From the NCBI GenBank assembly GCA_947625685.1, contig CANQPK010000001.1:36535-100534 (forward strand): 64,000 nt of DNA. The letters run 5' to 3'. Shown piece by piece: positions 63,274-63,364 of the stretch. The stretch comes from an uncultured Clostridia bacterium. GTDB lineage: Bacteria > Bacillota > Clostridia > TANB77 > CAG-508. How positions within the stretch are numbered: the first letter of the stretch is position 1; each line of letters begins with the position of its first letter. Under the pieces are notes generated by a model. It saw nothing but the letters and a program-made list of their open reading frames with translations. It was not told the origin of the DNA and did no database searches. The position numbers and the translations under genes are program-made.

Positions 63274-63364
63274 TTATATTATCTTTTTCTTCTAATATAT
63301 TATGTGTGTGTGTGTGTGTGTGTGTGTGTGTGTGTAGAGCCTCTAAGGTTCTAGCTTCTCTCAT
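63251..63364 (-). CDS. leader peptide ORF of locus 2 (MREARTLEAL-(HT)5H-NILEEKDNIRTHRTYT), containing the (CA)16 tract
   Basis: GGAGGAG RBS 8 nt upstream of ATG 63364-63362. The N-terminal decapeptide is conserved with locus 1. The stop TAA at 63253-63251 lies in the loop of the terminator hairpin. Confidence 0.5.
   Translation of the reverse strand: MREARTLEALHTHTHTHTHTHNILEEKDNIRTHRTYT
63303..63334. repeat. (TG)16 dinucleotide microsatellite
   Basis: A perfect 32-nt TG repeat inside the leader ORF. The homologous position in locus 1 is (TA)5(CA)3. Confidence 0.95.

Follow-up and report, generated by a model that had tools for sequence, protein, structure and literature searches.

Phase variation known in the Firmicutes is dominated by invertible DNA. 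In Clostridioides difficile cwpV, a 195-bp element is inverted by a site-specific recombinase (Emerson et al. 2009, PMC2784873). Repeats within structural genes are another source of phase variation; the CTCTT unit of Neisseria opa and the CT/AG tracts of Helicobacter are examples (PMC3894217), and poly-G tracts have been described in Campylobacter (PMC11955535). A third arrangement, a switch built of a repeat, a leader peptide and a terminator, has been demonstrated by genetics in Streptococcus gallolyticus, at its pilus operons pil1 and pil3 (Danne et al. 2014, PLoS Pathog, PMC3894217). Heterogeneous Pil1 expression depends there on the gain or loss of GCAGA units in a leader-peptide gene, the longer leader peptides relieving a stem-loop terminator by "ribosome-induced destabilization". 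The OFF stops lie 39 nucleotides (nt) upstream of the hairpin (at least 28 nt in other isolates) and the ON stops within or beyond it. Mutants of the ATG, stop codons and the terminator confirm the model, pil3 is a second locus with the device, and the repeat number varies among isolates (PMC3894217). Lactococcus lactis has served as a Gram-positive host for tests of pil1. In the literature that we searched, the experimental record of such a switch came from this one species only (pil1, pil3). Here we describe a (CA)16 microsatellite in a short leader open reading frame (ORF) on a stretch of 64,000 nt (64 kb; hereafter the window) from an uncultured Clostridia bacterium. A sequence-only reading of this stretch had taken the coupling of a repeat to an attenuator leader peptide to be undescribed, which Danne et al. 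(PMC3894217) show is not so; the Clostridia leader is a new example of a known design, not a new principle. The best-supported reading, which we regard as likely, is that the tract is the variable element of an attenuation-based phase-variation switch, in which gain or loss of a unit probably turns a set of surface-protein genes on or off.

The tract is a perfect period-2 array at 63303-63335 (16.5 copies, 100% matches in Tandem Repeats Finder), with (TG)16 on the plus strand and (CA)16 on the minus, coding strand. No other dinucleotide run longer than six units lies within the window, and a 16-nt (TG)8 probe matched this tract alone, with no match in 100 dinucleotide-preserving shuffles. The repeat unit of 2 nt is not a multiple of three, and its 16 perfect copies span codons 11-21 of the leader ORF, with the flanks GAGGCTCTA and TAATATATTAG on either side. 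Long ORFs in the window are almost all on the minus strand, and the tract is therefore to be read as (CA)16. The G+C content of the window is 28.5% and its plus strand is 43% T; so strong a bias in strand and composition is what a single replichore of a low-GC Firmicute typically has. Plus-strand ORFs of 28-29 residues that cross the tract were dismissed, as they are without ribosome-binding sites, run antisense to a conserved leader and lie on a nearly gene-free strand. The coordinates of the leader and of its surroundings are collected in Table 1.

Table 1. Positions in the window of the leader elements, of the paralogous leader and of the genes that follow.
Feature	Position	Strand	Description
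Promoter-like site	63413..63441	-	TTGACT 63441-63436, 17-nt spacer, TACAAT 63418-63413; just past the pyrG stop
Shine-Dalgarno GGAGGAG	63373..63379	-	8-10 nt ahead of the leader ATG; read from sequence
Leader ORF	63251..63364	-	ATG 63364, 36 sense codons, TAA 63253-63251 in the terminator loop; predicted ON frame
21-nt box GCTAGAACCTTAGAGGCTCTA	63335..63355	-	codes ARTLEAL; abuts the repeat on its 5' side
(CA)16 microsatellite	63303..63334	-	codes (His-Thr)5-His; one unit gained or lost shifts the downstream frame
OFF-frame stops	63292..63302	-	TAA 63302-63300 (n = 0 mod 3), TAG 63294-63292 (n = 2 mod 3)
Intrinsic terminator	63216..63282	-	AAGG base at 63275, ~19-bp stem, loop 63253-63249, 3' arm end 63227; terminator scan
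First gene	62650..63180	-	176-aa single-pass membrane protein, FxLYD-like C-terminal domain
Second gene	60665..62611	-	648-aa protein, prepilin-like N-terminus, Ig/fn3-like domains, Cys/His-rich C-terminus
Third gene	60079..60633	-	184-aa FxLYD-domain membrane protein; NF038353 23.5 bits, over cutoff
Locus 1 leader	45111..45238	-	ATG 45238, identical 21-nt box, (TA)5(CA)3 45210-45195, TAA 45187-45185, terminator 45168-45111

The leader is preceded by a gene that, to judge from its translation, is probably a CTP synthase-like pyrG (stop at 63488). The promoter-like site behind it scored 10/12 in a consensus scan, and its TTGAC-N17-TAnAAT layout is kept in all seven homologous leaders that cover the promoter region; the same kind of scan gave no promoter-like site in the minus-strand interval that separates the terminator from the first structural gene (63216-63180). 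The distance from the -10 hexamer down to the first unit of the repeat, which is within the transcribed leader ORF, is 79 nt. Phase variation through a promoter-spacer repeat was ruled out, as the repeat is neither between the -35 and -10 hexamers nor in an upstream regulatory site. A frameshift inside a structural gene was likewise rejected: the repeat sits in a separate upstream ORF, and the structural genes are intact in every state. Each homologue has AGGAG, GGAGG or GGGGA at matching spacing, and Shine-Dalgarno and ATG are conserved in eight leaders. The product of the leader ORF, MREARTLEALHTHTHTHTHTHNILEEKDNIRTHRTYT, runs through (His-Thr)5-His and reads on beyond it, with the layout MRE-ARTLEAL-(HT)5H-NILEEKDNIRTHRTYT. 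The box that codes ARTLEAL is identical in six leaders (the one under study, which we call locus 2, its paralogue in the window, locus 1, and the homologues L001, L007, L002 and L003a); in L003b and L009 it has two differences each, one Ala-to-Thr and one synonymous Leu.

The number n of CA units sets the frame in which the ORF leaves the repeat, and the first stops of the three frames lie at -27, -19 and +22 nt relative to the hairpin base, the last of these in the loop. The sequence-only reading had placed the (TG)16 tract inside the leader ORF and had given its consequences for the frame and the stop, and Tandem Repeats Finder, the ORF reading and frame-shift arithmetic bear it out in these respects. 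With n = 16 the ORF passes through (His-Thr)5-His and the 5' arm of the terminator to the loop stop (TAA 63253-63251); with n = 15 the ORF ends at a TAA right behind the repeat, 27 nt short of the hairpin base; with n = 17 a TAG comes three codons past the repeat, 19 nt short of it. One repeat-length class alone, n = 1 mod 3, enters the hairpin. The OFF-frame stops are kept at equivalent positions in the homologues through exchange of TAA and TAG.

Two side features of the leader region deserve mention. A motif TAT(A/G)TTACAAATTA(A/G)(T/C)(T/A)AC adjoins the -35 hexamer on its upstream side in all leaders (window 63442-63470 and 45325-45350, and the equivalent positions in L002, L003 and L009); it could be an UP element or the operator of some regulator. 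Close to the predicted 5' end of the leader transcript there is a small hairpin (CACAUAAGUUAAAAUGUG at window 63403-63386, UUAACUUUCAAGUUAA in relatives). Its position is shared by the window, L002, L003 and L009, its sequence differs among them, and it may act as a 5' stabiliser.

The proposed switch would work as follows. Transcription from the sigma-70-type promoter just past pyrG would yield a leader RNA of ~190 nt, on which ribosomes would initiate at the strong Shine-Dalgarno and ATG, read M-R-E-ARTLEAL and then enter the repeat. The number of CA units would decide the frame of exit. For n = 1 mod 3, the class of the assembly (n = 16), 16 further open codons would lead to a stop in the terminator loop; a ribosome trailing RNA polymerase would then cover the 5' arm and block the hairpin, and transcription would enter the FxLYD/prepilin-like/FxLYD operon (ON). 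For n = 0 or 2 mod 3 the ribosome would halt 27 or 19 nt ahead of the hairpin, the terminator would form and most transcripts would end near 63220 (OFF). Slipped-strand mispairing during replication would add or remove units and so give a population of mixed ON and OFF cells.

The terminator itself is well defined. The scan placed the hairpin at 63270..63230, followed by CCCTTTTGTT; the T-rich tail TTTTGTTATAT occupies 63226-63216, and an A-rich stretch upstream is able to pair with it. The folding energy of the hairpin is -31.9 kcal/mol (z = -9.1 against shuffles), and the terminator, with the leader stop in its loop, stands 35 nt ahead of the operon. Hairpins of -17 to -33 kcal/mol occur at the matching place in eight homologues. 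RNAalifold on the hairpin gave 27 pairs with no compensatory changes, which neither supports nor contradicts it. In partition-function calculations on the RNA alone, the probability of the terminator stem was 0.998 at all n in the range 0-25, and the CA tract stayed unpaired (paired probability ~0.1 at n = 16). The minimum-energy and centroid structures of the full leader both retain the terminator, and a competing helix is absent. Since the stem probability is independent of n, tract length cannot act through RNA structure; in these models the reading frame is the sole route for a length signal that is visible in the sequence. At the gathering score, an Rfam 15 scan of the window matched only a tRNA at 31631-31702 (plus strand) and nothing at the leader, and a permissive scan of 63100-63560 returned chance matches to microRNA-hairpin models, far below thresholds.

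An observation on one homologue touches the terminator. In L002 (positions 72-1, minus strand; contig CANREW010000023.1) the sequence at the end of the T-tail reads …GTGTGTCTTTTGTTA, followed directly by GTGCGACGGGCATG…. The segment 72-1 is 78% identical to the 72 nt (L022 2501-2572) that precede group II intron hits on a Persicobacter plasmid, where Rfam finds domains D1-D4 at 2588-2891. It has the look of a group II intron 5' end that was inserted right after the T-tail, with the contig ending inside the intron; a direct Rfam scan of L002 1-340 gave no hit, and the assignment leans on the Persicobacter homology. Class C introns target terminators, and a predicted intron directly behind the T-tail thus lends indirect support to the hairpin as an intrinsic terminator.

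The leader is present at seven complete and four truncated loci in related uncultured Clostridia, and its anatomy, the conservation of that anatomy and the differences in tract length between strains were established directly. Over the five assemblies with clean tracts, the lengths are 16 (window), 8, 9, 11 and 8 CA units; two further loci have short, degenerate tracts. A near-identical strain, L001, was found by exact look-up of the 176-aa protein (ENA sample ERZ27249265). It differs from the window by two substitutions in 935 aligned nt and by one 16-nt gap, and this gap is the repeat, (CA)8 against (CA)16. The comparison with related strains that had been proposed with the sequence-only reading thus finds the tract to vary in length between near-identical flanks. 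With eight units the L001 ORF, MREARTLEALHTHTHIIY, is in the TAG frame and predicted OFF. L007, from the same sample and with an 84%-identical protein, has (CA)9 and an ORF that ends at a TAA right behind the repeat. A scan of GTDB genomes with the 21-mer found two metagenome-assembled genomes only, Lapin-024 bin78 and Lapin-023 bin86, both titled "uncultured Clostridia bacterium"; these supplied L002 with (CA)11 and L003 with (CA)8, and both ORFs end right behind the repeat. L003 carries a second leader, L003b, 2.2 kb downstream of the first (positions 5209 and 7449), with (CA)8 at the contig end; its post-repeat sequence is unrelated to that of the other leaders, and the contig ends there. 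The first L003 leader precedes a 399-aa protein with the prepilin-like N-terminus EGITLIALIITIIIL and then a 93-aa ORF with a partial FGE-sulfatase-like domain. Two samples yielded one and the same leader with (CA)4(TA)3 (L009 and L010), as expected if instability depends on tract length. L008 and L011 (1-3) end exactly at the tract and L012 (1) begins inside the hairpin; the breaking of three independent short-read contigs at tract or hairpin would fit an element that is multi-copy or heterogeneous in length and so disrupts assembly graphs. Throughout the 146 kb of fetched sequence, all dinucleotide tracts of at least six units directly follow the conserved box, bar one (AT)6.

The frame layout is shared by the relatives. 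In all seven complete leaders exactly one post-repeat frame enters the hairpin and ends 0 to +11 nt from where the loop begins, and the other two frames have stops 27, 19 or 6 nt ahead of the hairpin base. The open frame is set by the first post-repeat bases (TAAT, GATAG or AATAG), and the ON class accordingly differs, n = 0 mod 3 for L002 and L003a as against n = 1 mod 3 for the window. Most of the substitutions that the long-frame peptide has undergone are non-synonymous (E/K, K/R, D/G/S), as expected if the passage of the ribosome alone matters. The sequences are related, and the conservation of the leader is for this reason supporting rather than independent proof. Loci of the more distant FxLYD homologues P0022, P0008, P0006, P0019 and P0036 are without the leader, and the leader box, sought in both exact and degenerate form, did not turn up in JGI metagenomes, viral contigs or plasmids, from which we take the leader to be confined to a subclade or narrow lineage. 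Contigs with an identical GroES stop short of the leader.

The translation-coupled phase switch of the sequence-only reading accordingly stands as to its layout (seven of seven complete leaders), the length differences between strains and the length-independent folding, and what we infer is the function itself. Our confidence goes no further than likely because translation, termination and heterogeneity within a population, and with them the relief of the terminator by ribosomes, are deduced rather than observed. Several points weigh against the switch. The ON frame occurs in one of the seven complete leaders, so that the predicted ON state depends on a single assembly. The evidence is at the level of assemblies, and heterogeneity within one population is a prediction; short-read metagenome assemblies, a few of them with coverage of just 3-8x, are the source of the tract lengths, and the alleles are few. 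As compensatory substitutions are absent, conservation of the hairpin could reflect recent common descent. The RNA polymerase of Bacillus subtilis is said, in a 2020 Nature study by Johnson et al., to outrun ribosomes. Such uncoupling would make ribosome-mediated antitermination weaker in Firmicutes, although the S. gallolyticus case shows that such a mechanism is workable all the same. Finally, the box is invariant even at synonymous sites, which the model does not need and which hints at a further function.

This last point is where the principal alternative begins. The terminator may be controlled by something other than the leader ribosome, such as a factor (a trans-acting antiterminator, or one of processive antitermination) whose recognition site is the box or the conserved sequence before the -35 hexamer, with the tract a tolerated mutable spacer and its frame of no effect; we think this improbable, if the most serious of the rivals. 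It would account for a box GCTAGAACCTTAGAGGCTCTA that is invariant, third codon positions included, in six leaders otherwise 10-30% divergent and that is able to form a small imperfect hairpin, and for the conservation of ATATTACAAATTA upstream of the -35 hexamer. Yet the box, unlike RAT-type sites, has no overlap with the terminator and is separated from it by at least 50 nt; alternative pairing that involves the terminator is not predicted, and no Rfam family matches. The box changes of L009 and L003b (two synonymous Leu, two Ala-to-Thr) weaken the small hairpin yet keep the peptide, and perfect tracts of 8-16 units at five loci, all in Shine-Dalgarno-led ORFs with a shared stop arrangement, are hard to see as neutral. 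Tract length might instead act without translation and give a graded response, through RNA pairing with the 3' arm of the terminator, protein binding, or Z-DNA that hinders polymerase. The CACACA of the repeat does recur within the terminator 5' arm (GGACACACAGG) and is complementary to GUGUGU of the 3' arm, and Z-DNA can form in tracts of alternating purines and pyrimidines. The 6-bp alternative, however, is outcompeted by the 19-bp 5' arm next to it, in keeping with the unchanging stem probability (0.998 at n 0-25) and the low pairing of the tract (~0.1), and the conserved Shine-Dalgarno, ATG and stop layout would be left unexplained, so that we give this mechanism little credence.

The up to 11 alternating His and Thr codons that the repeat places ahead of the terminator recall an amino-acid-sensing attenuator of the his/thr leader type, on which ribosomes would stall when charged tRNA is scarce. 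This is the explanation we find hardest to credit: minimum-energy, centroid and partition-function calculations predict no antiterminator structure, a ribosome stalled in the repeat would be at least 27 nt from the hairpin, the His/Thr codon number ranges from 2 to 11 across alleles, and the downstream genes encode FxLYD membrane and prepilin-like surface proteins, not biosynthetic enzymes. It could also be that the length differences are artefacts of short-read assembly and that the tract is stable in vivo, with no switching. Two of the contigs are shallow (L001 3.6x, L007 8.1x), and the ending of L008 and L011 at the tract indicates that assemblers struggle there. We nevertheless hold artefact to be a slim prospect, since five independent assemblies have clean, perfectly flanked tracts (8, 8, 9, 11 and 16 units), both a read and a typical final k-mer are longer than 16-32 nt, and bacterial slippage becomes frequent at lengths well short of a perfect 16-unit dinucleotide repeat.

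More tentatively, and with the odds in our view against it, the frame switch may be part of a portable multi-copy cassette of promoter, ARTLEAL box, (CA)n and terminator, placed before many paralogous prepilin-like loci in an uncultured gut Clostridia lineage; its copies would slip independently and its box would serve as a second input. At least two copies are in the window and two lie 2.2 kb apart in L003. The second input would come through a trans-acting factor or the nascent peptide and be added to the frame switch, and an entire family of surface proteins would vary combinatorially between ON and OFF. Nothing in the streptococcal system corresponds to such a combination. The paralogous leader in the window, locus 1 (region 45050-45361, minus strand), is 70% identical to locus 2, with matching promoter layout, Shine-Dalgarno and ATG. 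As the sequence-only reading had it, only (TA)5(CA)3 is found at the repeat position. Its ORF MTKARTLEALYIYTQVY stops 19 nt ahead of a terminator hairpin of -23 kcal/mol, and the leader is followed by paralogous genes for a 154-aa (FxLYD) and a 526-aa (prepilin-like) protein; a protein look-up for locus 1 found no record.

The neighbourhood of some copies differs. In L001 (1-287) the upstream gene is not pyrG but an ORF with 53% protein identity to part of window 39116-39319 (an SH3/dockerin protein). Identity between L001 and the window starts ~30 nt before the upstream stop (window 63488-63519), and both upstream genes end VEAAKKCKR*. This leaves two explanations, movement or recombination of the leader cassette and chimerism of the 3.6x contig. 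In L003 (4105-5046) and L009 (2754-3623) the gene directly upstream of the leader is of the Replic_Relax family (PF13814), which hints that some leader copies are in or beside mobile DNA.

The three products of the operon are predicted from their sequences to be cell-envelope or surface proteins. The 176-aa protein scored 21.9 bits against NCBIfam NF038353, just under the cutoff of 23, with paralogues above it, and had no Pfam match. The N-terminus of the 648-aa protein, RG followed by ITLVALIITIIIL (RGITLVALIITIIIL), reached 17.4 bits for Pfam N_methyl, which is under threshold; the protein also gave weak fn3 and Big_7 matches and weak Ig-fold matches in PDB. Its C-terminal ~120 residues (window 60665-60950) are unusually rich in Cys, His, Gly, Ser and Thr, arranged in short repeats of motifs such as CSGG… and HGxxSxHT…, which suggests a metal-binding or disulfide-rich module. 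The third gene is followed by groES and then groEL.

If the switch operates as proposed, uncultured gut anaerobes would provide a second, unrelated case, and with it proof of more than one origin of the design. The Clostridia instance would bring a dinucleotide repeat, several loci per genome and natural length alleles that are already visible. The design would be recognisable from sequence alone, as a short ORF with a Shine-Dalgarno, a non-triplet repeat, a terminator and frame-dependent stops, and would thereby give a search rule for phase-variable surface proteins in metagenome-assembled genomes of Firmicutes. It would also serve as a warning that such operons look "terminated" or "silent" in most assemblies and yet can be switched on.

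Every feature of the S. gallolyticus pil1-type switch that can be checked in sequence was found here (promoter, ORF, repeat, terminator, frame-dependent stops and length alleles). The two share the order of promoter, Shine-Dalgarno-led ORF with a non-triplet repeat, intrinsic terminator and surface-structure genes; in both the OFF stops fall ~20-40 nt before the hairpin and the ON stops within or beyond it; the terminators have energies of -18.7 and -28.2 kcal/mol in S. gallolyticus and -31.9 kcal/mol in the window; and in both the repeat number varies between isolates or strains and a genome has more than one device locus. The repeat, in contrast, is a dinucleotide, (CA)8-16, here and a pentanucleotide, (GCAGA)13-23, there, and one frame in three reads through here, whereas in S. 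gallolyticus long peptides result from both of the out-of-frame classes. The host belongs to an uncultured low-GC lineage of Clostridia and not to the streptococci, the predicted targets are FxLYD/prepilin-like genes and not those of sortase-assembled pili, and the invariant N-terminal box has no streptococcal counterpart. There is no sequence relationship between the CA-unit leader and the streptococcal GCAGA leader, and the likeness is thus one of mechanism only and not of common descent. C. difficile cwpV, also from a Clostridia host, resembles the proposed switch in that a heritable stochastic DNA change in the promoter-to-coding interval decides the fate of a leader terminator before a surface-protein gene (PMC2784873); the change there is an inversion and here would be repeat slippage, and neither leader peptide nor ribosome takes part in cwpV. 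With in-gene repeats the leader would have in common slipped-strand mispairing, a non-triplet unit and a frame change that toggles a surface protein; their product is truncated, whereas here a separate upstream ORF of 17-37 codons is predicted to affect transcription termination. As in the trp/his/thr leaders, where a ribosome stands on its leader ORF is proposed to decide whether an intrinsic terminator forms downstream. Those leaders sense charged tRNA through stalling and an antiterminator hairpin, while here there is no alternative hairpin and the input would be genetic, the reading frame itself.

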